DNA of 38,234 nucleotides, from the NCBI GenBank assembly GCA_021158265.1, contig JAGGUY010000037.1, positions 1 through 38,234 on the forward strand, given 5' to 3'. Source of the stretch: Thermoprotei archaeon (lineage in GTDB: Archaea > Thermoproteota > Thermoprotei_A > EX4484-217-1). The translations under genes were made by a program, and so were the position numbers. Under the pieces are notes generated by a model, which was not told the origin of the DNA, did not search any database, and saw only the letters and a list, made by a program, of their open reading frames with translations. The first letter of the stretch is position 1, and every line of letters starts with the position of its first letter. Of the stretch, positions 9,398 to 26,556 are shown piece after piece.

Positions 9398-10774
9398 ATG
9401 AAGCAAGCGAAAATAATAGCAACCATAGGACCTGCATCAATGAATTTAGATACTATAACTAAGCTTGTTCGTGAAGGTGTAGATGCCTTCCGCTTCAACT
9501 TCTCCCATGGAACATATGAGGAAAAGGATAAGGCAATAGAGAACGTAAGATTTGTTGAAGAAAAATTCGACATAGAAATACCGCTAATAGCTGATCTTAC
9601 GGGTCCAACTATAAGATTAGGTGAGATAGAGGAGACGTATCTAAGGAAAGGCGATGTAGTATATATTGTTAATTCATATAAGGGAGATTCTAAAAGCAAG
9701 CACATACCCTTACCTGACAAGAGAACTTATAATCAAATAGAGGAAGGAGATGAAATACTGTTAGATGACGGTAAAATAACGTTACTTGTTGATGAAGTAC
9801 TTGCTGATAAAATTAAGTGCTTAGTTCTTAACGATGGAATAATAAAGTCTAGAAGAACGTTTGCGATTAAAGGTAAGGAAGTAAGCGGGCCCGCACTAAC
9901 TCAAAAGGACATTAATGATGTAAAATATGCTGTTTCTAAAGGTTTCGACTATGTAGCTCTATCCTTTGTTAGATCGGTAGGTGATATTGAGAGGTTAAGG
10001 AAGCTTCTAAGGGAACTTGGAGAGGAGGATATGAAAATTATTGCGAAAATAGAGACGAGAAGTGCTGTTGAAAAAATAGATGAAATAATTAGTGAAGCTG
10101 ACGCGGTTCTTGTCGCTAGAGGGGATTTGGGGATGTACTTTAAACTTGTTGAAATACCTAAAATACAAGAACTTATAATTAAGAAAGCATTAGCTTACGG
10201 TAAACCATCAATTGTTGCAACACAACTTCTAGAGTCAATGGTTAATAACCCTATACCTACGCGTAGCGAAGTAGTTGACATTATGAAGGCTGTCGAGCAA
10301 GGAGCTGACGCACTAATGCTCTCAAACGAGACAGCTATAGGAAAATATCCTGTAGAATCCGTTAGGTGGTTAAGGAAGATTATAGAAGCATCACCTCCAT
10401 GTGAAAGGGTTATCGAAGGAGTTAATGAAACAATTTATGACAAATTTGCTAAAGGAATAGTTTTACTTGCAGAATCGTTAGGTGCGAAAATAGTTGCCTT
10501 TACACGCTCTGGAGCAACAGCTAGAAGACTTTCAAGGTATAGGCCAAGGGTTCCCGTATACACAGTCACTAATGATAAAAGAGTTTCCAGACAGCTAAAG
10601 ATTCTTAGAGGAATAAGTTCATGCTACTTAGAAGATGCATCACCAGAAAACTTCTGGGAAAAAGCAAGTAAAATACTTGAGGATAAGGGAGAATTATCAT
10701 CAGGTGACATAGTAATAGCCATTAGGGGTATGAGGAAAGAAGCAACAGATCTTGTGAGAATAGAGAAATTATAG
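9398..10774 (+). CDS. pyk: Pyruvate kinase
   Basis: KIIATIGPAS, RFNFSHG, AKIE, VARGDLG, ATQLLESM, PTRSEV.D and MLSNETA.G.YP motifs; start ATG 9398 fits the homology start. Confidence 0.96.
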   Translation: MKQAKIIATIGPASMNLDTITKLVREGVDAFRFNFSHGTYEEKDKAIENVRFVEEKFDIEIPLIADLTGPTIRLGEIEETYLRKGDVVYIVNSYKGDSKSKHIPLPDKRTYNQIEEGDEILLDDGKITLLVDEVLADKIKCLVLNDGIIKSRRTFAIKGKEVSGPALTQKDINDVKYAVSKGFDYVALSFVRSVGDIERLRKLLRELGEEDMKIIAKIETRSAVEKIDEIISEADAVLVARGDLGMYFKLVEIPKIQELIIKKALAYGKPSIVATQLLESMVNNPIPTRSEVVDIMKAVEQGADALMLSNETAIGKYPVESVRWLRKIIEASPPCERVIEGVNETIYDKFAKGIVLLAESLGAKIVAFTRSGATARRLSRYRPRVPVYTVTNDKRVSRQLKILRGISSCYLEDASPENFWEKASKILEDKGELSSGDIVIAIRGMRKEATDLVRIEKL

Positions 10775-13700
10775 GTTAACAAATTCTTCATTAAATGTAG
10801 GGTATGTTACACCCTTCCTTCTAGCTTCGTAAACAACCTTCATCGTTTCATCATAAAACTCTCTTAATACATCTACGTAGTTTGTCTTTCCTAATTCTAC
10901 TTCGTCTATTTTCTCCTGTAAAATCTTGGTTCTGTTTTCATTTACGAGATCGCTAAAGTTTGCTGAGAGAAACTCGTAAATTCTTTTACCCCTCGATGTA
11001 GCTACAAGCTTTCCCTTACCTACCTCTAAAACATATCCTCTACGCCTTAGATTTTGAAGAATTTTAGCATAGGTTGAAGGCCTACCTATACCTTTCTTCT
11101 TCATCAAATCTACTACGTCACTGTATGAGTATAGTGGATATTCTGGAATAAGCCTTAAGCTTAAATCTTCAATATAGTATTCTCCTTCACTTATTTTTGA
11201 AGCTTCTTCGAGAATACGGAATTTAGCTAAGACTGTGAATCCCTCGAATAATACTTTAGTGGTGAACGTAAATTCTCTTTCAAGATCTCTAAAGACAAGT
11301 TTTAATGAGATCTTCTCAACCTTAGCCGGAGCCATTTGGCTTATCATGAATCTCTTGAAGATTAAGTCGTATAGTCTAAGGTCATCTTGTCTTATAGGTA
11401 CGGCTAATCTGAGAACGCCTGCTGCTCTAAGAGATTTTATTTGACGTGAATCTAAGGGTCTTGTCGGTCTAATACATTCATGCGCACCTGGTTTCTCCCA
11501 CTTCCTGGGTTTAAAATATTCTTCACCATAAACTCTTGTTATGAAGTCTTTAGCTATAGATATTCCAACGTTACTTACTGTTGTACTGTCGGTTCTATGG
11601 TATGTTATTAGTCCTGCTTCGAAGAGTCTCTGTGCAGAATCCATTATTGCGGGAGCTGAAAGTCTTAGTACACGTGATGCTTCTGATAACATCGAGTCTG
11701 TTGTGTATGGTGGTGGTGGATTTACTTCAACAACTTCTTTTTTAACATTTGTTATGGTGATTTTTCCTTCCTTAAGTATTTGCTCAGCTGTTCCTCTGGG
11801 AGCTTTGAATATTAGCGTTAGGTTTAGCCCTTTAAGTTTGAGCATTATAAGTTCGGCTTTTTTCTTATTCTTCTCTGTCCTATCAACAATCCATCCTAAT
11901 ACTGGTGTTTGCACTCTTCCTGCTGACAAGTAGTTTATTCCGAACTCCTTCCATAGGATAGGGCTTAAGCTGAAACCTATCCATCTATCTTCGATTCGCC
12001 TAACAATTTGTGCTTTAACAAGGTCTTCATTTATTGTAGTTAGATTGTTAAGAGCTTCTCTTAAACCCCTTCTTGTGACTTCGTGAAATCTAACTCTCCA
12101 AATGTTTTTGTTAAGAGGTTTCAAAAGTAATGTTATATCCCAAGCTATTTTTTCACCTTCACTGTCGGGATCGGTTCCGACAAGTATTTCATCGACTTGT
12201 GAAGCTAATTGTCTTAAAGCGTTTATTATGGGTCTACTCTCTATGAATACTTTCCCTCCACAGTATGGGCATGATTCTTCCTCTTCTGGAACATCTCTAC
12301 CGCATCTAATGCATCTTTTTATAGGCTTATATGTAGGTACGAAGTATCCGTTCGCGATTTTTACTCCGAATATTCCAAAGTCTTTTACCAAATCAAGCAC
12401 ATGACCGCCGGTTGCGGTAATTATCATTAGCCTATTCTCAGTTATTACCTCATATGTTTGGAGGGTACCTATTGTTTTTCTTGTAGGTTTACCGAACATT
12501 CTCGAGATTGTTCTTGCCTTATTCGGTGATTCAACAATGAATAAAGTGGTTTTCATGAGCTCATGTTCTTTAGGCCTATATTTGCCCTCAATAGCTAATC
12601 TAACCTTCCTACGATCATCATCTATTTCCTTCAATATTTTCTCTAGATTTACTTCATCTAACTTATAGAACTGAACAGTTTCTAGAAGCCATTTAAGATC
12701 CTTTAAGAGGGAGTTGAAGGCTTTTTCTTCATCAATAACTATTACGCTTAAACCCTTAGTTAAACCGCCAACATAAAGCCTACTTGTTCTTCCGCTTGCT
12801 TGAATGTATGCTGTTGCATCAGGTATTATGAAGAAGTATTCTCCCTCTTTACCGCCGAAAGTTATTGTTGGGCTTTTCCTTAGTTTCTCAAGAACTTCTT
12901 CATCTTTCAGAACCGTTAGGAGGAAATCAAGCGTTTCCTTAGCTACTCTTCTAACGAACTCAGGATATCCTTCAAGCGTTTCGTTTTCTGCAAGAGCTTT
13001 CCTTACCTGTTCAAGAACATCTCGTGTTGCTGTCCTTACCCTAATGAGTCCTCCGAGAACCCTATCAAACATTCTAGGGTACTTATCGTATACCACATCT
13101 TTTATTTCATTCAAAAGTATGAGCCATCTACTTGGTTGAAACTCATCAACGCTAATTCTTATTCTAAACTTAGGGACTCCAGCAAAGACAGCATACCTTA
13201 CTCTTTCAGGTAAGTCTATACCTCTTGTTAGCGGACTTCTATATGATGCTATACCTACAAGAACATCTATATCTCCAGCAACATATTTTTCGAAAACCCT
13301 CTTTCTAGCTCCAAGATATGCTTCAGCATTTACTCCTCTTTCTTTCAAGTACTCTGTAAGCTTCTTAACGTATTCAGCACCCTTGTCCATAGGTACATAA
13401 ATTAGTCCTCCTCCACCCAGTTTCGCAACTATATTGGCAACTTCTTCTTCTATGGAGAAAGAGGGTTTAACATAAGTGTCAACAATGTTCCTTCCAACTT
13501 CAACTTTTCCTCCAACTGTAAATCCGAATAGCGAGCTGAGCAACCTTACTCTCTTAGTCCTTCTAGCTGTTTGTGTAGCTCCACTAACTACTATTTGGCC
13601 CTTTACGTTCTCCCTTACCTTTCTCTTCAACTCTGAAGCCTTTCTGAGGAGCTCTCTTGCCTCTTCAGGACTATCTCTTGAAAGCTTTCTTGCCGTACTC

Positions 13701-14422
13701 TCCATTTTCTGAGCTTCTTCAATAAGCGCTATTTCCTCGGGAGAAACACCTAGCATTTTAAGTACTACATCAACACTTTTACTCCTTCTTAAGAAACTAT
13801 CTACATCGTCTATGAATGCTACGTCTATTTTTTGCTGTAGTTCCTCACGTTTCATTAGGCTTATTGGTGTTGTAATTATTATTGAAGCTTCATCCATTGA
13901 TGCTAATTCCATTTGTTTCTGCTTTTCACTCAATAAGCTGTGGTATGCTGCAACTTTAACACTGTCCAATTCTAGCTTGGAGCGTATCTCAATCACTTTA
14001 TTTTGAACTTGATGTACGAGTAGGCTTGTAGGTAGAAGTATAAGAGCTCTTTTTCCATAGTTTGCTGAAGCGTAAAGCCCAAATATTATTTGGGCTGTAG
14101 TTTTACCGCTTCCCGTTGGAGCAACCATGGCGAAGCTTTCGCCATTAAGAAATCTGCGAGCCCATAATCTTTGCAAACCCCACATTTTAGATCCTATTGC
14201 TTTAACGAATAATTTGTTGATTTCGTTAACGTGTTCTTCAACATCCCATACCTTTACAAGAAAACCTTTAATTACAGGGTATTTTAATTCTGGATTAGGT
14301 AGACATTTTTCGCAAGGTAAACTCTTTTCTAACCTTTCCGAAGTAATATCGCTACCGCAGTTCGGACATAGCCCCTTAAATATCGCTGGTATCATGTATT
14401 CACACTCTAACTTCCCTTTCAC
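10769..14422 (-). CDS. rgy: Reverse gyrase
   Basis: N-terminal Zn finger (CPNC..CEKC), SF2 helicase-like APTGSGKT/DDVD/QASGRTSR, topoisomerase IA TOPRIM (VESPNKA, DPDSEGE) and catalytic LITYHRTDS. Confidence 0.98.
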   Translation of the reverse strand: MKGKLECEYMIPAIFKGLCPNCGSDITSERLEKSLPCEKCLPNPELKYPVIKGFLVKVWDVEEHVNEINKLFVKAIGSKMWGLQRLWARRFLNGESFAMVAPTGSGKTTAQIIFGLYASANYGKRALILLPTSLLVHQVQNKVIEIRSKLELDSVKVAAYHSLLSEKQKQMELASMDEASIIITTPISLMKREELQQKIDVAFIDDVDSFLRRSKSVDVVLKMLGVSPEEIALIEEAQKMESTARKLSRDSPEEARELLRKASELKRKVRENVKGQIVVSGATQTARRTKRVRLLSSLFGFTVGGKVEVGRNIVDTYVKPSFSIEEEVANIVAKLGGGGLIYVPMDKGAEYVKKLTEYLKERGVNAEAYLGARKRVFEKYVAGDIDVLVGIASYRSPLTRGIDLPERVRYAVFAGVPKFRIRISVDEFQPSRWLILLNEIKDVVYDKYPRMFDRVLGGLIRVRTATRDVLEQVRKALAENETLEGYPEFVRRVAKETLDFLLTVLKDEEVLEKLRKSPTITFGGKEGEYFFIIPDATAYIQASGRTSRLYVGGLTKGLSVIVIDEEKAFNSLLKDLKWLLETVQFYKLDEVNLEKILKEIDDDRRKVRLAIEGKYRPKEHELMKTTLFIVESPNKARTISRMFGKPTRKTIGTLQTYEVITENRLMIITATGGHVLDLVKDFGIFGVKIANGYFVPTYKPIKRCIRCGRDVPEEEESCPYCGGKVFIESRPIINALRQLASQVDEILVGTDPDSEGEKIAWDITLLLKPLNKNIWRVRFHEVTRRGLREALNNLTTINEDLVKAQIVRRIEDRWIGFSLSPILWKEFGINYLSAGRVQTPVLGWIVDRTEKNKKKAELIMLKLKGLNLTLIFKAPRGTAEQILKEGKITITNVKKEVVEVNPPPPYTTDSMLSEASRVLRLSAPAIMDSAQRLFEAGLITYHRTDSTTVSNVGISIAKDFITRVYGEEYFKPRKWEKPGAHECIRPTRPLDSRQIKSLRAAGVLRLAVPIRQDDLRLYDLIFKRFMISQMAPAKVEKISLKLVFRDLEREFTFTTKVLFEGFTVLAKFRILEEASKISEGEYYIEDLSLRLIPEYPLYSYSDVVDLMKKKGIGRPSTYAKILQNLRRRGYVLEVGKGKLVATSRGKRIYEFLSANFSDLVNENRTKILQEKIDEVELGKTNYVDVLREFYDETMKVVYEARRKGVTYPTFNEEFVNL

Positions 14423-16063: not shown

Positions 16064-16135
16064 GTATACCACCCATACTAGTTTATGGATGCAAATATTT
16101 ATAAATCTTCATGCAGATAATCATTAATGGTGAAT

Positions 16136-16190
16136 GCCTCCGATGAGGGGGTGCACCACTTGTAATGCATGGGTGGTTCTCCGAGGATGC
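16136..16190 (+). promoter_or_regulatory. K-turn hairpin in the tnpB 5' leader
   Basis: GCCTCC-GAT-GA-GGGGG ... TCTCC-GA-GGATGC with internal ACCAC/GTGGT stem; TTTATAAA box at 16098-16105; ATG at 16194. Confidence 0.45.
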
Positions 16191-16193
16191 AAG

Positions 16194-17384
16194 ATGCTGA
16201 CCCTAAAAGCAAGAGGAGTACTAGTAGACGGCTCTCTTTGGGAGCTAAGAGAAGAACTATACCTTACACGAAGAGCAATACAATATGTCATAGATGCATT
16301 ATGGGAACTAGACAAACTACCGAGCATTAACCAAGCACACCAGATATTCTATAAGATGTTGAGAAAACAAGGGTTCCGTGCACACCAGTGCAAGCAGGCG
16401 TACAAGTACGCTCTAGGAATAGTCAGGTCAGCTAAGAAGAATAAAGGGAGAAAACCAGTACTAAGGAAGCTGTCAGCACGTCTAGACAAATATGATGCGG
16501 TAGTTGATTTAGAGAACCAAGTGGTAGTCATAAAGCTAAGAAACAAAACATTCAAGATAAAGTTACTACACCGTAGGAACTACATAAGGAAGTTCATGGG
16601 AAGGAAATGGTACGAGGTAATCATAAGCATTGATAGGCAGGGAAGGATATGGGTCTCTATACCCTTTAGATGGATATACGAACCATACAGTCCTAAGAGA
16701 TTGATTTCCCTTGACATTAACCTGAAGAAGGTGGTGGTCTACGACGGTAGGAGTGTTAAGAGGATCGATACTAGGTTTGTTGAAGCGTTGTATCTGAAGA
16801 TTCACGCTGAGAGGGTTCAGAAGAAGTATTCTAGAATGTGGAGGCACAATAAGAGGATACTCAATAGGATAAGAGGTCTTCATAGACGCTCAAGAAACAT
16901 AGTAATTGACTGGTCTCGTAAATTTGCTAAATACTTTGTCTTTAAAGCGAAGAGAACAGGAAGTGCTATAGTATTAGAGGACTTAGAGAAACTATGGTTT
17001 AATGTTTCACAAAAGTCTTCTACCCTAGCTAATAGGTTGTCAAGGTTCGCTTACTGTAAGTTACAACTAGCAATAGTAACTAAAGCGATAGAGTATAACA
17101 TACCAGTAATCTACGTGGACCCTAGAGGAACATCTACACTATGTCCTAAGTGTGGGGCAAAGCTATCATATACTCATAGACTAGCTATATGTGGGAACTG
17201 CGGATTCATAGCTGATAGAGATACGGTAGGTACTATGAACGTACACCTTCGAGGTTTAAGGGGTATGTGGGGAAGCCTTGGGTCTCCCCTGAACGCTCCC
17301 GCAATGAACGATGAAACCCGAGGGAGCGGGAGAACCATAGATGAGCCGATGACAGTTCATATAAAATCATATACAAGCATATAA
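16194..17384 (+). CDS. tnpB: RNA-guided endonuclease TnpB
   Basis: RuvC-I SLDIN, RuvC-II VLEDL, VDPRGTS, Zn finger CPKC..CGNC and RuvC-III DRD..G..N all intact. Start uncertain (ORF open from 16134). Confidence 0.93.
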   Translation: MLTLKARGVLVDGSLWELREELYLTRRAIQYVIDALWELDKLPSINQAHQIFYKMLRKQGFRAHQCKQAYKYALGIVRSAKKNKGRKPVLRKLSARLDKYDAVVDLENQVVVIKLRNKTFKIKLLHRRNYIRKFMGRKWYEVIISIDRQGRIWVSIPFRWIYEPYSPKRLISLDINLKKVVVYDGRSVKRIDTRFVEALYLKIHAERVQKKYSRMWRHNKRILNRIRGLHRRSRNIVIDWSRKFAKYFVFKAKRTGSAIVLEDLEKLWFNVSQKSSTLANRLSRFAYCKLQLAIVTKAIEYNIPVIYVDPRGTSTLCPKCGAKLSYTHRLAICGNCGFIADRDTVGTMNVHLRGLRGMWGSLGSPLNAPAMNDETRGSGRTIDEPMTVHIKSYTSI

Positions 17385-19092: not shown

Positions 19093-20055
19093 ATGAGGAT
19101 TACGGATATGATTGTTTTTCTAAGTGGAGGTACGGGTACGCCAAAGCTTATCGAAGGATTTCGCCACATAGTAAGTGATGAGGAAATAACGGTAATAGTC
19201 AACACATCCGACGACATATACTGGAACGGTCTCTATATATCACCGGATCTAGATACCATAGTTTATCTTTTCGCAGGCTTTTTAGATACTGAGAAATATT
19301 GGGGGATAAAAAACGACACTTTCAACTTTCTCGAGCAAGCGAAAATTTATGGTTTAGAGAAAACATGGTTTAACATTGGCGATAGAGATCTTGCGATGCA
19401 CGTTTTAAGAACATACCTTATGAATAAAGGTTTAACGTTAACCGAAGTTACTAAGTACATTAGTAGAAGACTAGGGATTAAGGCCCGTATTTACCCTATG
19501 TGTAATGAACATGTAGAAGCATTTGTAGAGTTACTTGATGGGAAAGTGCTGAATATTCAAGAATACCTGGTTAAACATAGGTTCGAACCCGAGGTTAAGA
19601 GAGTTTTCTTTAGAGGACTTGAGAGAGCTAAGGCTGAAGAAGAAGCTCTAAAAGCTATTCTGAGCTCTGAATTAATAATCATAGGTCCGAGCAATCCTAT
19701 TAACAGCATAGGACCCATACTTAAAGTTAAGGGTGTTAAGGAGGCTCTAAAGGAAGCAAAAGCACCTATAGTTGCTGTATCACCAATTATCTCAAATAAG
19801 CCTGTTTCTGGTCCCGCAGATAAATTCATGAAAGCTTATGGGCTCGACCCTTCACCCTTAGGGATAGCGGAGTTTTATAAGGGAATAATTGATGGATTAG
19901 TAATAGATGTCGCTGATGAAGCGTTAAGGTTAGTTATTGAGAAGAAATTTAAAATAAGAGTTCATGTGGCAAAAACAATTATGGAGTCCTTAAATGATAA
20001 GGTAGCGCTTGCCAGAGAAATCATGGAGTTTGCAAGGACATTAGGAGAAGAATGA
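19093..20055 (+). CDS. cofD: 2-phospho-L-lactate transferase
   Basis: LSGGTGTPKL, ISPDLDT, IGDRDLA.H, IGPSNP..SI.PI and SGPA motifs. Confidence 0.95.
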   Translation: MRITDMIVFLSGGTGTPKLIEGFRHIVSDEEITVIVNTSDDIYWNGLYISPDLDTIVYLFAGFLDTEKYWGIKNDTFNFLEQAKIYGLEKTWFNIGDRDLAMHVLRTYLMNKGLTLTEVTKYISRRLGIKARIYPMCNEHVEAFVELLDGKVLNIQEYLVKHRFEPEVKRVFFRGLERAKAEEEALKAILSSELIIIGPSNPINSIGPILKVKGVKEALKEAKAPIVAVSPIISNKPVSGPADKFMKAYGLDPSPLGIAEFYKGIIDGLVIDVADEALRLVIEKKFKIRVHVAKTIMESLNDKVALAREIMEFARTLGEE

Positions 20056-20699
20056 AAATGAGAATTGCTGCGATAATTCCTGTTAAGAATCCTTCAACAG
20101 CTAAATTAAGACTTTCAAAGGTTCTTACGCAGGATTTAAGAGAGAAACTTACTCTCGAAATGCTTAAGGACATTATTGTTTCTATTACCTCATGTAAGCT
20201 CATAAATTACATAGTTATTGTTACCCCCGGAGAAAAAGCGAGTATTGTGAAAGAATATGGTAAGAACATTTTCCTAATAAGGGATGAGGGTAAAGGCCAA
20301 ATAAATGCTGTAATGAAGGGAATAGACTTTGCACAGAAAACTCTTCAAGCAAACATAGTTGTTATTCTAGTTGCTGATGCACCATTAATAGGTCCATGGG
20401 ATCTTTATGAAATAGTTAGGAAAGGATATGTTTGGAATAGTGTTGTTCTAGCTCCTTCTGATGATGGAGGAACGAATGTAATTCTTCAGAACCCACCTAA
20501 AAACATACCTTTAAGATATGGTAGAAGTAGCTTTAAAAAACACTTAAGTGAGTGTGAAAAAAGAAAGCTTAAATGCCTAGTTTATTCATCAGAAAGTATA
20601 TCACTTGATATTGATGCACCTAGCGATTTAGAGAGACTTAAACAATCAGGTAAAGGAACATACACATATTCGTTCATAAGAGAGGTGTTTAAGAATTAA
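20052..20699 (+). CDS. cofC: 2-phospho-L-lactate guanylyltransferase
   Basis: IPVK....AK.RLS, ML.D, AD.PL, DGGTN, YG..SF..H and DID.P.DL motifs; ATGA overlap with cofD. Confidence 0.92.
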   Translation: MKMRIAAIIPVKNPSTAKLRLSKVLTQDLREKLTLEMLKDIIVSITSCKLINYIVIVTPGEKASIVKEYGKNIFLIRDEGKGQINAVMKGIDFAQKTLQANIVVILVADAPLIGPWDLYEIVRKGYVWNSVVLAPSDDGGTNVILQNPPKNIPLRYGRSSFKKHLSECEKRKLKCLVYSSESISLDIDAPSDLERLKQSGKGTYTYSFIREVFKN

Positions 20700-21747
20700 T
20701 TTAGAAAACGAGTTCTTTATTGAAGGAGATTTTATCGAAGACATATACGGCATAATATTCGATGTTAAAGGGTATGAGCATCCACCAGAAAGAGTTGTAG
20801 CTTATCCTAGATATGTTCCTTCACCCTCTGGAAATAGATGTAGAAACGGGGAGTGCTATGAGAAAATATATGATCTAAACATTAGGTATGACTTCTTAAA
20901 GAGTAGGCTTAAGGAATACCTTGTCTATGACGATGTTTTTGACACGTATGTAAGTGAAGTCCCCTTGAAAAACATCGTTAAACACTATATTCCATCAAAA
21001 TACTTAAGGAATCTATTGAAACATAGAGATTCCCTTAAAGGTTTAAAGAGAAAAGCCCTAGACTTTGCCCTAACTATAGCTAACGAATCAAATGTGGATA
21101 CCAGAAATCTAGGTATAAGTGGTTCGTTGCTTGTAAATCTACATAGGGAGAATAGTGATATTGACTTAATAGTTTATGGTACCGACGAATCTAAAAAGGT
21201 GGCTGACGCTCTCACCAAGCTTTTTTCTAAAGGTGTTCTAAGAAAACACACTATTGAAGAATATAGGAGATTATTTGAGTTTAGGAAAGCATATAAAGTT
21301 ATGGATTTCGAAACCTTCGTCAAACATGAAAGAAGAAAGATTTTCCAAGGATTCTTTGCGGATAGAGAGTTCTTCATAAGATTCGTTGAGAAACCTCAGG
21401 AAACCCATAGGTATGGTGAATTTAAGTATAAAAACATGGGAGAAGTTACTATTAAGGCTAAGGTCGTAGATGATTCAGAGTCTATATTTACACCAGTTAG
21501 CTATAAAATCGAGGTGATTAAAGTTATAGATTCAAGTAAGCTTAAAGGTAAGAATATGGATTTTAATAAAATACGTGAAGTGGTTTCGTTTAGAGGAAGA
21601 TTTTGCCAGCAAGTTTTCTCAGGGGAAATAGCTATAGTTAGAGGTAAGTTGGAGTGCGTGTTTCATCATGGTGAATTTAGTCATTATAGAATAATTGTTG
21701 GAGGTTCATATAATGACTTTATCATATCGGAAAGTCTTCTTAGATAG
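20695..21747 (+). CDS. Pol-beta-superfamily nucleotidyltransferase (COG1665-like), copy 1; probable ATT start
   Basis: Frame open from 20680; upstream of the track start it encodes EGDFIED..GIIFDVKGYEHPPERVVAYPRYVP, homologous to copy 2; GISGS...SDIDL catalytic motif; GAGGTG 7 nt before ATT 20695. Confidence 0.8.
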   Translation: MNLENEFFIEGDFIEDIYGIIFDVKGYEHPPERVVAYPRYVPSPSGNRCRNGECYEKIYDLNIRYDFLKSRLKEYLVYDDVFDTYVSEVPLKNIVKHYIPSKYLRNLLKHRDSLKGLKRKALDFALTIANESNVDTRNLGISGSLLVNLHRENSDIDLIVYGTDESKKVADALTKLFSKGVLRKHTIEEYRRLFEFRKAYKVMDFETFVKHERRKIFQGFFADREFFIRFVEKPQETHRYGEFKYKNMGEVTIKAKVVDDSESIFTPVSYKIEVIKVIDSSKLKGKNMDFNKIREVVSFRGRFCQQVFSGEIAIVRGKLECVFHHGEFSHYRIIVGGSYNDFIISESLLR

Positions 21748-22792
21748 GGACTTCGTCGAAGATAAGAACGGTTATCTTTACTGTGTTGTAGGGTATGTGC
21801 ATCCACCTGATAGAGTACTAGCGTATTTGAAATATGTACCTACACGAAGTCTAGACACTATATGGTTTAAAGGTAGAGTAGGTTACAATAGAGTACTTAA
21901 GTACTATAGTAGCGTTGCTGTGACGGAATCATTTAAAATATTAAAGAAGGTTAAGCCTCATTACATATATTACGATAACGTATTTAACATAACATTCATA
22001 GGTGTTCCAATTAGCGAAATAAGGAAACACTATATTCCTGAAGAAAGACTCAAGGAAATTATTGAGAGTGGAGGGAAGGACGAGCTAGAACAAGACCTTA
22101 TAGAGCTTGTAAAATATCTTTCCGAGACAACAAATGTTAAAATTCAGTCCTTCGGAATTTCAGGATCTATCCTCACAAGTATTCATCATCCTAAGTATTC
22201 GGATATTGATTTAACAGTTTATGGTATTGCGAACTCATGGACTCTCATCAAAGTATTAAGAGAAGCTGATGGAAAAGATAAGATAAAATTACCGGAAGAT
22301 AACGTTATTAGAGAATGGGCCCTAGAGGTCTCTAAACATCATCCACTAACTCCAAAGGAAGCTTACTTAATGTATGTTGAAAAGAAAATGAGACTAGTTT
22401 TCAAAGAATCCAGGGTTTTCTCAATTCATCCAATACTTCTACCTGAGGAGGTAAACGAAAAATACGGTGATAAGATATACGTACCCAAAGATCTCATAAA
22501 AATAAAGGGGAAGGTAATAGATAATAGGTTATCGATTTTCCTACCTGGGAAGTACATTGTTGATGATGTAAGTGTTCTTAAGGGTAAGAGAGAATATTCT
22601 GAAATAGAGGAAGTTGTGACTTTTGAGGGTCTATACTCAGGAATATTGGATGTAGATGAGGAATTTATTGCGTATGGCAAAGTTGAAGAGGTTCATGATA
22701 GAATTAAAGGAAGGAAATATTTGAGACTAGTCATAGGTTCTGCTGAAGCAAAAGGTAAAGACTACATTAAACCATTAAGGTGGCTTAGGTGA
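21713..22792 (+). CDS. Pol-beta-superfamily nucleotidyltransferase (COG1665-like), copy 2
   Basis: DRDFVED..GY.HPPDRVLAYLKYVP and GISGSIL...SDIDLTVYG motifs; beta-rich C-terminus; GGAGG before ATG 21713. Confidence 0.85.
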   Translation: MTLSYRKVFLDRDFVEDKNGYLYCVVGYVHPPDRVLAYLKYVPTRSLDTIWFKGRVGYNRVLKYYSSVAVTESFKILKKVKPHYIYYDNVFNITFIGVPISEIRKHYIPEERLKEIIESGGKDELEQDLIELVKYLSETTNVKIQSFGISGSILTSIHHPKYSDIDLTVYGIANSWTLIKVLREADGKDKIKLPEDNVIREWALEVSKHHPLTPKEAYLMYVEKKMRLVFKESRVFSIHPILLPEEVNEKYGDKIYVPKDLIKIKGKVIDNRLSIFLPGKYIVDDVSVLKGKREYSEIEEVVTFEGLYSGILDVDEEFIAYGKVEEVHDRIKGRKYLRLVIGSAEAKGKDYIKPLRWLR

Positions 22793-22801
22793 TAGGAGGT
22801 T

Positions 22802-23569
22802 ATGGCTAAAGAAATAGTGCTTATAGGGCTGGAGACATTACCGGAAATAAGGGAAGGTGATGATATAGGTAAGTTAATTGTTGAGGCATGCGCTAGAGAG
22901 GGAGTCAAGATAAGTGATGGCGATATAATCGTGGTTACACATAAAATTGTTTCAAAAGCTGAAGGTAGAATAGTCAGCCTTAAGGATATTGTTCCCTCGG
23001 AGAAAGCACGTGAAATCGCAGCAATTGTGGGAAAAGACCCAAGATTTGTTGAACTAGTACTCAGAGAGTCGAAACGTATTATTAAGGCTACAAGAGAGGG
23101 CCACTTAATTGTTGAAACACATCATGGAATAGTCTGTGCTAATGCTGGAATAGATGCTACAAACATCGCTGGTACAGAGGAAATAGTGGCTTTACTCCCT
23201 AAGGATCCTGACATGTCAGCTAAGAAAATAAGAAATAGGATAAAGGAGCTTACGGGAAAGAACGTTGCAGTCATAATAACAGATACCTATGGTAGACCGC
23301 TAAGAAATGGTATGATAAACATGGCAATAGGGCTTTCAGGCATTAACCCTTTCAGAGACTATAGAGGAAAAGACGATACCTTTGGGTATAAATTTAAAGT
23401 AACGGTCATTGCTGTAGCTGACGAAATAGCATGTGCTGCAGAACTTCTTACAGGTCAAGGCAAGGAGAGAATTCCTGTTGTTATAATTAAAGGGTATAGA
23501 TACGAAAGAAACGAGAAAGCATCTGCTAAAGAATTAAATATGCCGGAGGAAAAATGGCTTTTCAAATAG
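22802..23569 (+). CDS. cofE: Coenzyme F420-0:L-glutamate ligase
   Basis: LPEI..GDD, HKIVSKAEG, CANAGID.TN, LLP.DPD.SA, TDTYGRP.R.G and ADE.A.AA motifs. Confidence 0.96.
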   Translation: MAKEIVLIGLETLPEIREGDDIGKLIVEACAREGVKISDGDIIVVTHKIVSKAEGRIVSLKDIVPSEKAREIAAIVGKDPRFVELVLRESKRIIKATREGHLIVETHHGIVCANAGIDATNIAGTEEIVALLPKDPDMSAKKIRNRIKELTGKNVAVIITDTYGRPLRNGMINMAIGLSGINPFRDYRGKDDTFGYKFKVTVIAVADEIACAAELLTGQGKERIPVVIIKGYRYERNEKASAKELNMPEEKWLFK

Positions 23570-26043: not shown

Positions 26044-26556
26044 CTACTTAAGCTTATAACCAATCTTCCTCAGAAACTCTCTTCTCTCCTTAATTTTCTC
26101 TTCATCCTCTATACCAACAGGTTTAAACCCATCAACTACTCCTAAAAGCCCTCTACCTTGATCAGTTTCGATAACTACTGCTTGAATAGGATTAGCTGTA
26201 GCCGCAAAAATCCTTGTAACCTCCGGAACATTCTTTATAGCGTTTAAGACGTTTATTGGCCAACCCCCTCTAAGGTAAATTACGAAAACATGGCCAGCCC
26301 CTATTTTCAAGCATGTTTCAGCCGCAAGTTTCCTTAATTCCTCATCATTTCCTTCATGTCTGACAAGCCTATCGCCGCTTGCTTCACAAAATCCAAGCCC
26401 AAACTTTATTGAGGGACAACTATTAACTATTGTCTCGTAAATGTCCTCTGTCGTCTTTATGAAATGGCTTTGACCTATGATAACGTTTGTCCCTTCAGGA
26501 ATAGGTATTTGAATTATTTCTATTTTAAATTTCTCGGACAAAATACGAGCACCCAA
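26044..26556 (-). CDS. Adenosine-specific kinase family (DUF355) protein
   Basis: [32 protein letters not shown] and GRG..GVVDG motifs. Confidence 0.9.

Follow-up and report, generated by a model that had tools for sequence, protein, structure and literature searches.

Paired nucleotidyltransferase-like genes inside an archaeal F420 operon belong to a family that tracks CitG-like proteins and may serve methanopterin-type cofactor synthesis

Within a 38,234-nt stretch of Thermoprotei archaeon DNA (contig JAGGUY010000037.1, here called the window), two adjacent genes for predicted nucleotidyltransferases, NT1 and NT2, sit among the F420 biosynthesis genes cofD, cofC and cofE. The five genes share the plus strand and follow one another in the order cofD-cofC-NT1-NT2-cofE, from 19093 to 23569 (Table 1). 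The cofD and cofC genes overlap by 4 nt, the 3' end of cofC contains the opening of the NT1 frame (20680), NT1 and NT2 overlap by 35-53 nt, and a 9-nt gap separates NT2 from cofE. Gene calls and profile scores thus agree with the overlapping or 9-nt junctions described in an earlier sequence-only reading of this DNA, which had proposed that the pair forms an undescribed F420 tailoring or precursor module. For NT2, the ATG at 21713 is the probable start, as it matches the N-termini of relatives better than the upstream TTG.

Table 1. Genes and other features of the window discussed in the text.
Feature	Position	Strand	Evidence
cofD (2-phospho-L-lactate transferase)	19093..20055	+	PF01933 187.6 bits; TIGR01819 344.2 bits (cut-off 257.45)
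cofC (2-phospho-L-lactate guanylyltransferase)	20052..20699	+	PF01983 121.5 bits; TIGR03552 141.4 (cut-off 105)
Candidate NT1 start	20682..20697	+	Shine-Dalgarno-like GAGGTG 20682-20687, 7 nt, ATT 20695-20697; 1-nt overlap with cofC stop
NT1, clade B	20695..21747	+	frame open from 20680; family profile 347 bits; clade in tree
NT2, clade A	21695..22792	+	family profile 469 bits; TTG 21695, ATG 21713; AlphaFold2 pLDDT 93.2
cofE (F420-0:gamma-glutamyl ligase)	22802..23569	+	PF01996 277.5 bits; TIGR01916 287.4 (cut-off 180.65)
Reverse gyrase gene	10769..14422	-	
TnpB/Cas12f-like open reading frame	16134..17384		PF07282 TNB domain, 53.8 bits
PF04008 'adenosine specific kinase' protein	26044..26556	-	248.8 bits

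NT1 and NT2 share 31% identity across 345 residues (E 2e-38), and both carry the motifs G-x-S-G-S...S-D-I-D-L and G-Y-x-H-P-P-x-R-V-x-A-Y-x-[RK]-Y-V-P, in keeping with their earlier description as diverged paralogs with GS...DxD and GYxHPP motifs. NT1 retains G140, G143, S144, D155, D157 and E236, all invariant among 25 clade-B sequences (clades are defined below), while NT2 retains G154, S158, D170 and D172, invariant among 33 clade-A sequences, together with E252, which is present in at least 90%. Judged by position, E236 of NT1 and E252 of NT2 probably supply the third carboxylate, and the combination of G-[GS]...D-x-D with a third acidic residue points to membership of the pol-beta nucleotidyltransferase superfamily. 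Neither protein scores above the cut-off of any Pfam or NCBIfam model, and none of these models spans the whole protein; the matches to PF01909 (NTP_transf_2) are weak (19.2 bits for NT1 and 15.2 for NT2, cut-off 21), with some relatives scoring 22.5, 26.1 and 28.8 bits. Searching the ESM Atlas returned archaeal clusters, some of which partly carry PF01909, and the family profile found no match among PDB sequences at E values up to 1. In a literature search, which did not cover supplementary files, we found nothing on the NT family or on a role of CitG in the methanopterin pathway. Minimal PF01909 proteins and the pol-beta enzymes of the PAP/TUTase type share the G-S...DxD motif and the later acidic residue with the NT family, but NT1 and NT2 fall under the Pfam cut-off and the family has an additional HPP-containing domain without a clear structural match.

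An AlphaFold2 model of NT2, built with 27 relatives as input, had a predicted local distance difference test (pLDDT) score of 93.2 and divides into three parts: a beta domain (residues ~20-113), a pol-beta core (~125-250) and an OB fold (262-365). The core aligned with Pol X (Z 7.5, root-mean-square deviation (rmsd) 3.1, 91 residues), TUT7 (Z 7.2) and GLD-2 (Z 7.0), and its matches overall, which also include TUT1 and Trf4, ranged from Z 6.7 to 7.5, where values below 8 are not decisive according to the tool. The C-terminal domain is predicted to be a five-stranded OB barrel, in line with the beta-rich C-terminus noted earlier; it aligned with MCM-N (Z 8.5, rmsd 3.2, 83 residues), SSB (Z 8.3 and 8.2) and RPA (Z 7.2-7.5), the MCM-N and SSB alignments having VIA Z values of 8.0-8.5 over 82-85 residues, and with anticodon-binding folds of aminoacyl-tRNA synthetases, for an overall range of Z 6.7-8.5. 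The HPP motif, the most conserved of the family, lies in the small N-terminal beta domain (~residues 20-113 of NT2); folded alone (pLDDT 86.7), this domain gave a top VIA Z of 4.7, to Sm/SH3-like small barrels, and no usable match. The structure prediction and Foldseek comparison suggested by the sequence-only reading thus yielded the three-domain model, but for the full model no PDB match at E ≤0.001, with domain-level rows and, weakly, poly(A) polymerase and OAS1 listed. Prediction of an NT2-NT1 complex scored 0.00, which gives no verdict and bears neither way on a heterodimer. We also noted a 769-residue fusion of a clade-A nucleotidyltransferase to an M20 peptidase that includes the M20 dimerisation domain (PF01546, 100 bits) at another locus (L069 1850-4159, G123:C77).

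A tree of 84 family members resolves four clades (A-D); NT2 falls in clade A and NT1 in clade B, in each case together with its counterparts from three kin species (L004-L006). Clade neighbours were counted for the 226 NT open reading frames (ORFs) of at least 200 residues over all loci; a clade-A gene lies within 3 kb of 33 of the 46 clade-B genes. Since NT1 and NT2 belong to separate clades that each hold the motif, and since most clade-B genes have a clade-A gene nearby, the two are an ancient A+B pair and not a local duplication. Genomes carry 2-6 paralogues. The same 3-kb distance from the 46 clade-B genes takes in a CitG-like gene in 16 cases and a membrane protein resembling an ECF S-component in 11. 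The 59 lone clade-A genes are accompanied, again within 3 kb, by genes for MptN-like proteins (16), Mch (13), FwdC (11), MfnB (11), an AA-kinase resembling MfnE (9), Hydantoinase_A (9) and an Orf17-like His_biosynth protein (6).

The 5' end of NT1 required separate attention. From the stop codon at 20677-20679 onward, the earliest ATG, GTG or TTG in the NT1 frame is the TTG at 20965, which corresponds to codon 91 of the conserved protein and falls downstream of the N-terminal motif; full-length NT1 therefore requires a non-canonical start. In the kin loci L004-L006, the gene starts with a TTG or GTG within the 3' end of cofC, and the same codons are TAA and GAG in the window. The window and these loci have in common a GAGGTG followed by 7 nt and an ATT, or ATA in two of the kin, that overlaps the cofC stop. 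We infer that NT1 starts at this ATT in the window, and the conserved arrangement suggests either an isoleucine-codon start or coupled re-initiation. An NT1 truncated to begin at the TTG was considered and rejected: over the 85 codons upstream of it, the window and L004 differ by 28 synonymous and 7 non-synonymous codons, so that these codons are translated and this part of the protein is under purifying selection. An assembly error was likewise rejected, as contigs from four sequencing runs of four studies, one of which may be the window's source, agree over 20500-21100, with no indels and with seven places of single-nucleotide polymorphism, none of which creates an in-frame canonical start.

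Given the position of the pair, we examined whether the family follows F420. The family profile and cofD were searched in 401 genomes across the window's phylum; these and the other phyletic figures below are plain counts, given without a statistical test, over related genomes that are not independent. NT genes were found in 211 genomes and cofD in 174, with both in 98, NT only in 113, cofD only in 76 and neither in 114. At the level of taxonomic families, the presence of the two agreed in 15 and disagreed in 15 of the first 30 listed. One family has cofD in all of its 61 genomes and NT in none, while in the window's class (nine families) NT is present in 58 of 63 genomes and cofD in none. The sequence-only reading had named a distribution independent of F420 as grounds for abandoning an F420-specific role and had called for a check of co-occurrence with the cof genes; because NT and cofD are distributed independently, the F420-specific reading is not supported. 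What persists of that reading is that two diverged paralogues of a pol-beta nucleotidyltransferase family without earlier description lie in a cofactor operon. Moreover, as cofD is absent from the 63 other genomes of the class while NT is nearly universal there, we infer that the cof genes are newcomers that joined a resident NT pair in the window's lineage.

The neighbourhoods told a similar story. The 20-kb surroundings of 40 hits, selected by score, were combined with six contig loci and the window into a set of 47 loci from 43 genomes; all ORFs lying no more than 7 kb from an NT gene were then clustered, and the clusters were named by Pfam and NCBIfam. A cofD gene is present at five of these loci (the window, L004-L006 and G328), cofC at four (the window and its three kin) and CofE or a divergent CofE-like protein at nine. 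A further 80 independent metagenome loci were collected, and at none of the 50 that are at least 8 kb long was cofD, cofC or cofE found near NT. Linkage to cof genes is thus not unique to this genome, though it is rare. The neighbours that prevail elsewhere belong to methanopterin- and methanofuran-dependent one-carbon metabolism or to proteins of the CitG and DUF447 type, and not to the F420 genes that the earlier reading expected. Ftr is the commonest (14 of 47 loci), followed by the ECF S-component-like membrane protein (13), CitG-like proteins (12), Mch and FwdA-like proteins (10 each), FwdC and FwdB/D (9 each), an ATP-grasp protein whose best NCBIfam match is MptN (8; 279 bits, cut-off 350), a 165-residue domain sometimes fused to a ribokinase-like PfkB (7) and Mtd (6). 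The 50 long metagenome loci gave Ftr at 29, Mch and FwdC at 12 each, FwdB/D at 11, FwdA and MptN-like proteins at 10 each, CitG at 9 and Mtd at 7.

The family instead follows the CitG-like protein (PF01874), found in 199 of the 401 genomes; both genes occur in 194, NT only in 17, CitG only in 5 and neither in 185, and their presence agrees in 28 of the first 30 taxonomic families listed. Beta-RFAP synthase (TIGR00144, counted at E 1e-15) was detected in 160 genomes, with both it and NT in 154, NT only in 57, the synthase only in 6 and neither in 184. A second phylum, reached through locus L008, was sampled with 151 genomes and an NT threshold of E 1e-5: NT is present in 101 and the CitG-like gene in 124, with both in 93, NT only in 8, CitG only in 31 and neither in 19. 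The NT genomes here again fall largely inside the set with CitG, of which a quarter are without NT at this threshold. One genome (G037) has a divergent NT homologue directly beside the CitG-like gene. In the window's own genome, a DUF447-CitG-like pair lies on contig C13, FwdC-Mch-MptN-like genes on C12 and beta-RFAP synthase on C8, which indicates that the organism has a pterin pathway as well as F420. The module is also not confined to archaea, as a Caldisericota bacterium contig (L009, 92-9920) carries a clade-B homologue amid CitG-like, Ftr, Mch, FwdA, FwdC, MptN-like and MobA genes.

These associations recall a known pair of reactions. CitG makes 2'-(5''-triphosphoribosyl)-3'-dephospho-CoA from ATP, and CitX transfers this product to the hydroxyl of a serine, diphosphate being lost; CitX and MdcG are enzymes of the nucleotidyltransferase fold that use the triphosphoribosyl product of CitG or MdcB. 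Methanopterin carries an alpha-ribofuranosyl 5-phosphate on its ribitol, esterified to hydroxyglutarate. Beta-RFAP synthase is the first committed enzyme of its synthesis and, to our knowledge, the enzymes for the late side-chain steps have never been assigned. By analogy, we propose that the NT family belongs to methanopterin-type one-carbon cofactor biosynthesis, where it would work with the CitG-like enzyme and would not be specific to F420, a proposal to which we give a little under an even chance. In the envisaged route, the CitG-like protein (contig C13 in this genome) would place the 5-triphospho-alpha-D-ribosyl group of ATP on the ribitol hydroxyl of an arylamine-ribitol pterin intermediate, with release of adenine. 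The nucleotidyltransferases would then act in the manner of CitX and MdcG: attack on the alpha-phosphate by a hydroxyl acceptor, which in methanopterin is the 2-OH of hydroxyglutarate, would displace diphosphate and yield a ribose-5-phosphate diester tail. A more specific form of the proposal, which is possible but rather doubtful, is that the CitG-like protein and the nucleotidyltransferases attach the alpha-ribosyl-5-phosphate-hydroxyglutarate tail with ATP as the ribosyl donor, that clades A-D install different tails in different archaea, and that the window holds an F420-plus-pterin operon. The NT pair would share one operon with cofD, cofC and cofE such that F420 and the pterin are made together, as the two cofactors work together in reactions of the Mtd/Mer type. 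The assumed substrate and acceptor, how NT1 and NT2 would divide the work, and their co-transcription with the cof genes are all putative.

The resemblance to the CitG+CitX and MdcB+MdcG systems has several sides. Here, too, genomes with a pol-beta-type nucleotidyltransferase mostly have a CitG-family gene as well (194 of 211 in the first phylum, 93 of 101 in the second), the two genes are often neighbours (12 of 47 loci, 16 of 46 clade-B genes), and the proposed logic has the same two steps, an ATP-derived triphosphoribosylation and then a transfer to a hydroxyl in which diphosphate is lost. The systems differ in that the archaeal CitG-like proteins are far under the CitG and MdcB equivalog cut-offs (45 bits versus 272-282), that the NT proteins match no Pfam model of CitX or MdcG, have an N-terminal and an OB domain in addition and are present as 2-6 paralogues, and that a small molecule is the proposed acceptor in place of the acyl-carrier protein serine used by CitX and MdcG. 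Lyase or carrier-protein genes did not appear among the annotated conserved neighbour clusters, though no search was aimed at them. A CitG-family gene is present within bacterial mch-orf5-orf7 methanopterin clusters in the gene table that was available from PMC3615186, as well as in a cluster table of PMC11533326, and the available part of PMC8141765 describes the methanopterin form of methylotrophic bacteria as lacking the phosphate and the hydroxyglutaric acid. The CofC/CofD route offers a second likeness, as it also joins a sugar-alcohol cofactor core to a 2-hydroxy acid through a phosphodiester, by way of a nucleotide-activated intermediate, and its genes flank NT1 and NT2 in the window; CofC, however, has a MobA-like NTP-transferase fold (PF01983/PF12804) rather than the pol-beta fold, and the NT distribution is independent of cofD.

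Several observations weigh against a role in pterin side-chain synthesis. The chemistry is borrowed by analogy, and the Pfam models of CitX and MdcG matched neither NT1, NT2 nor three relatives at E up to 10, a search in which the filters drop most matches above ~0.1. In the first phylum, the 17 NT genomes without CitG and the 57 without beta-RFAP synthase do not fit, and in the second phylum 31 of 124 CitG genomes are without NT, such that the partnership is not obligate; either the profile misses a divergent form there or the CitG-like enzyme works without NT. Ftr, the commonest neighbour, uses methanofuran as well as methanopterin, and across all 124 clade-A genes MfnB lies within 3 kb of 11 and the MfnE-like AA-kinase within 3 kb of 9. 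It is F420 genes, and not pterin genes, that adjoin NT1 and NT2 in the window, and the G328 locus discussed below leaves a small probability for a CofC-like role. The number of paralogues per genome exceeds the needs of the single step proposed, and RNA would also be a suitable substrate for the predicted OB fold and PAP/TUT-like core.

Among other functions, we consider it unlikely that the family as a whole, or clade A (NT2) at least, builds or tailors methanofuran rather than the pterin, although the neighbourhoods speak for it in several ways: through the prevalence of Ftr in both sets of loci, through the formylmethanofuran dehydrogenase subunits at 9-10 of 47 loci, and through the MfnB, MfnE-like, Hydantoinase_A and Orf17-like genes counted above beside lone clade-A genes. 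Orf17 is required for methylofuran synthesis, and the enzymes that add further glutamates to methanofuran are given as unidentified, in the part of PMC8141765 that was available. A block shared by two loci of different lineages beside a clade-A NT gene (L043 4609-9049, L047 10631-13856), consisting of ATP-grasp_3, Orf17-like His_biosynth, Hydantoinase_A, AA-kinase and MfnB (4-HFC-P synthase) genes, looks like a methanofuran-type biosynthesis cluster. Since genes for using methanopterin, for using methanofuran and for making methanofuran are mixed in these clusters, adjacency does not separate pterin from furan. The five complete genomes of one family (f5) are more informative and favour the pterin, because they have NT, the CitG-like gene and beta-RFAP synthase but neither Ftr nor Mch (0 of 5 for each), with the caveat that their NT form is divergent; in one of the five, the NT homologue directly adjoins the CitG-like gene. 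In addition, we know of no ribose or phosphodiester in methanofuran that would call for chemistry of the CitG/CitX type. Still less probable is salvage or repair, in which the nucleotidyltransferases, the ECF S-component-like protein and the PfkB kinase would re-activate imported or damaged fragments of one-carbon cofactors. The frequency of the ECF-like gene around the family and within 3 kb of clade-B genes, the 165-residue domain sometimes fused to PfkB, and the NT genomes in which beta-RFAP synthase was not detected are what this idea would predict, and the ECF-like neighbour of clade B (L041 7095-7859, L042 7223-8047, L075 10779-11489 and 10 further loci) hints that a cofactor or a precursor is taken up. 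The transporter match is nonetheless weak (PF07155, 28.6 bits in one copy and weaker in others), no ECF-like gene lies within the window's operon, and the finding that 154 of 160 genomes with beta-RFAP synthase carry NT agrees with de novo synthesis.

An F420-related role, in which the pair tailors Fo or F420, activates a precursor or replaces CofC, is very improbable in light of the counts given above, which place more than half of the NT genomes (113 of 211) outside those with cofD, leave 76 of 174 cofD genomes without NT, show one gene prevalent without the other in one family and in the window's class, and put no cof gene near NT at the long metagenome loci. On its side stand the embedding of the pair between cofD-cofC and cofE in the window and in L004-L006, the presence of CofE-like genes beside the family at four further loci, and the G328 locus (G328:C11, L043 9184-12173) from another taxonomic family, where cofE, cofD and a clade-A NT gene lie in a row. 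No CofC (TIGR03552) was detected at E 0.001 in this 98%-complete genome, while four of four other cofD genomes checked have it. G328 is a single case, for which an assembly gap and a replacement of CofC are both possible, and in the tree its NT clusters with orthologues from genomes without cofD. The divergent CofE-like proteins (281-306 aa; L047 7488-8384, L049 7990-8874, L063 6278-7198, L066 11740-12585 and C8:3328-4128 in the window's own genome, near beta-RFAP synthase) adjoin NT, CitG-like and MptN-like genes, and PF01996 scores 40-81 bits in the L047, L063 and L066 copies. As some of these loci are in genomes without cofD, the protein cannot act on F420 there, and it may add glutamates to another cofactor. 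Least credible is an RNA- or DNA-directed nucleotidyltransferase, engaged for example in 3'-tailing or RNA repair, with the OB fold binding nucleic acid. The structural matches are those such an enzyme might have, with the C-terminal domain resembling SSB, MCM-N, RPA and anticodon-binding OB folds, the core resembling Pol X, TUT7, TUT1, GLD-2 and Trf4, and poly(A) polymerase and OAS1 listed weakly by Foldseek. These matches are, however, at the level of common folds, Z values below 8 being typical of chance-level best hits according to the tool; no RNA-processing gene was seen among the annotated conserved neighbour families, and the phyletic pattern tracks a cofactor pathway.

The surroundings of the operon were also surveyed. 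The window, contig C41 of a metagenome-assembled genome (0.89 Mb, 60% complete), has uncultured Desulfurococcales as its closest public relatives, occurs in sequencing runs labelled as hydrothermal vent or sediment metagenomes and encodes a reverse gyrase. The TnpB/Cas12f-like ORF lies ~1.7 kb upstream of cofD, before a cysteinyl-tRNA synthetase gene, and a mobile element this close to the cof operon fits recent rearrangement. Downstream, the PF04008 gene is 2.5 kb from cofE, with genes for an aminotransferase and a PhoU/MazE-domain protein in between. A promoter and terminator scan returned 10 promoter-like sites versus 17.1 expected and 0 terminators; the model is bacterial and uninformative for an archaeon.

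Collectively, gene order, paralogy, the catalytic motif and the associations seen in phyletic patterns and neighbourhoods describe a family that is without a Pfam or NCBIfam model and yet occurs in about half of the sampled genomes of one archaeal phylum (211 of 401) and two thirds of those of another (101 of 151). To name NT1 and NT2 F420 enzymes from their neighbours alone would mislead. By analogy with CitG and CitX, the NT family together with its CitG-like partner is the best current candidate for the side-chain steps of methanopterin-type cofactors, and the family offers a concrete and cheap assay on this question of the methanopterin pathway. If the proposal is true, the chemistry of CitG and CitX, which serves a protein prosthetic group, would have been transferred to a free cofactor.

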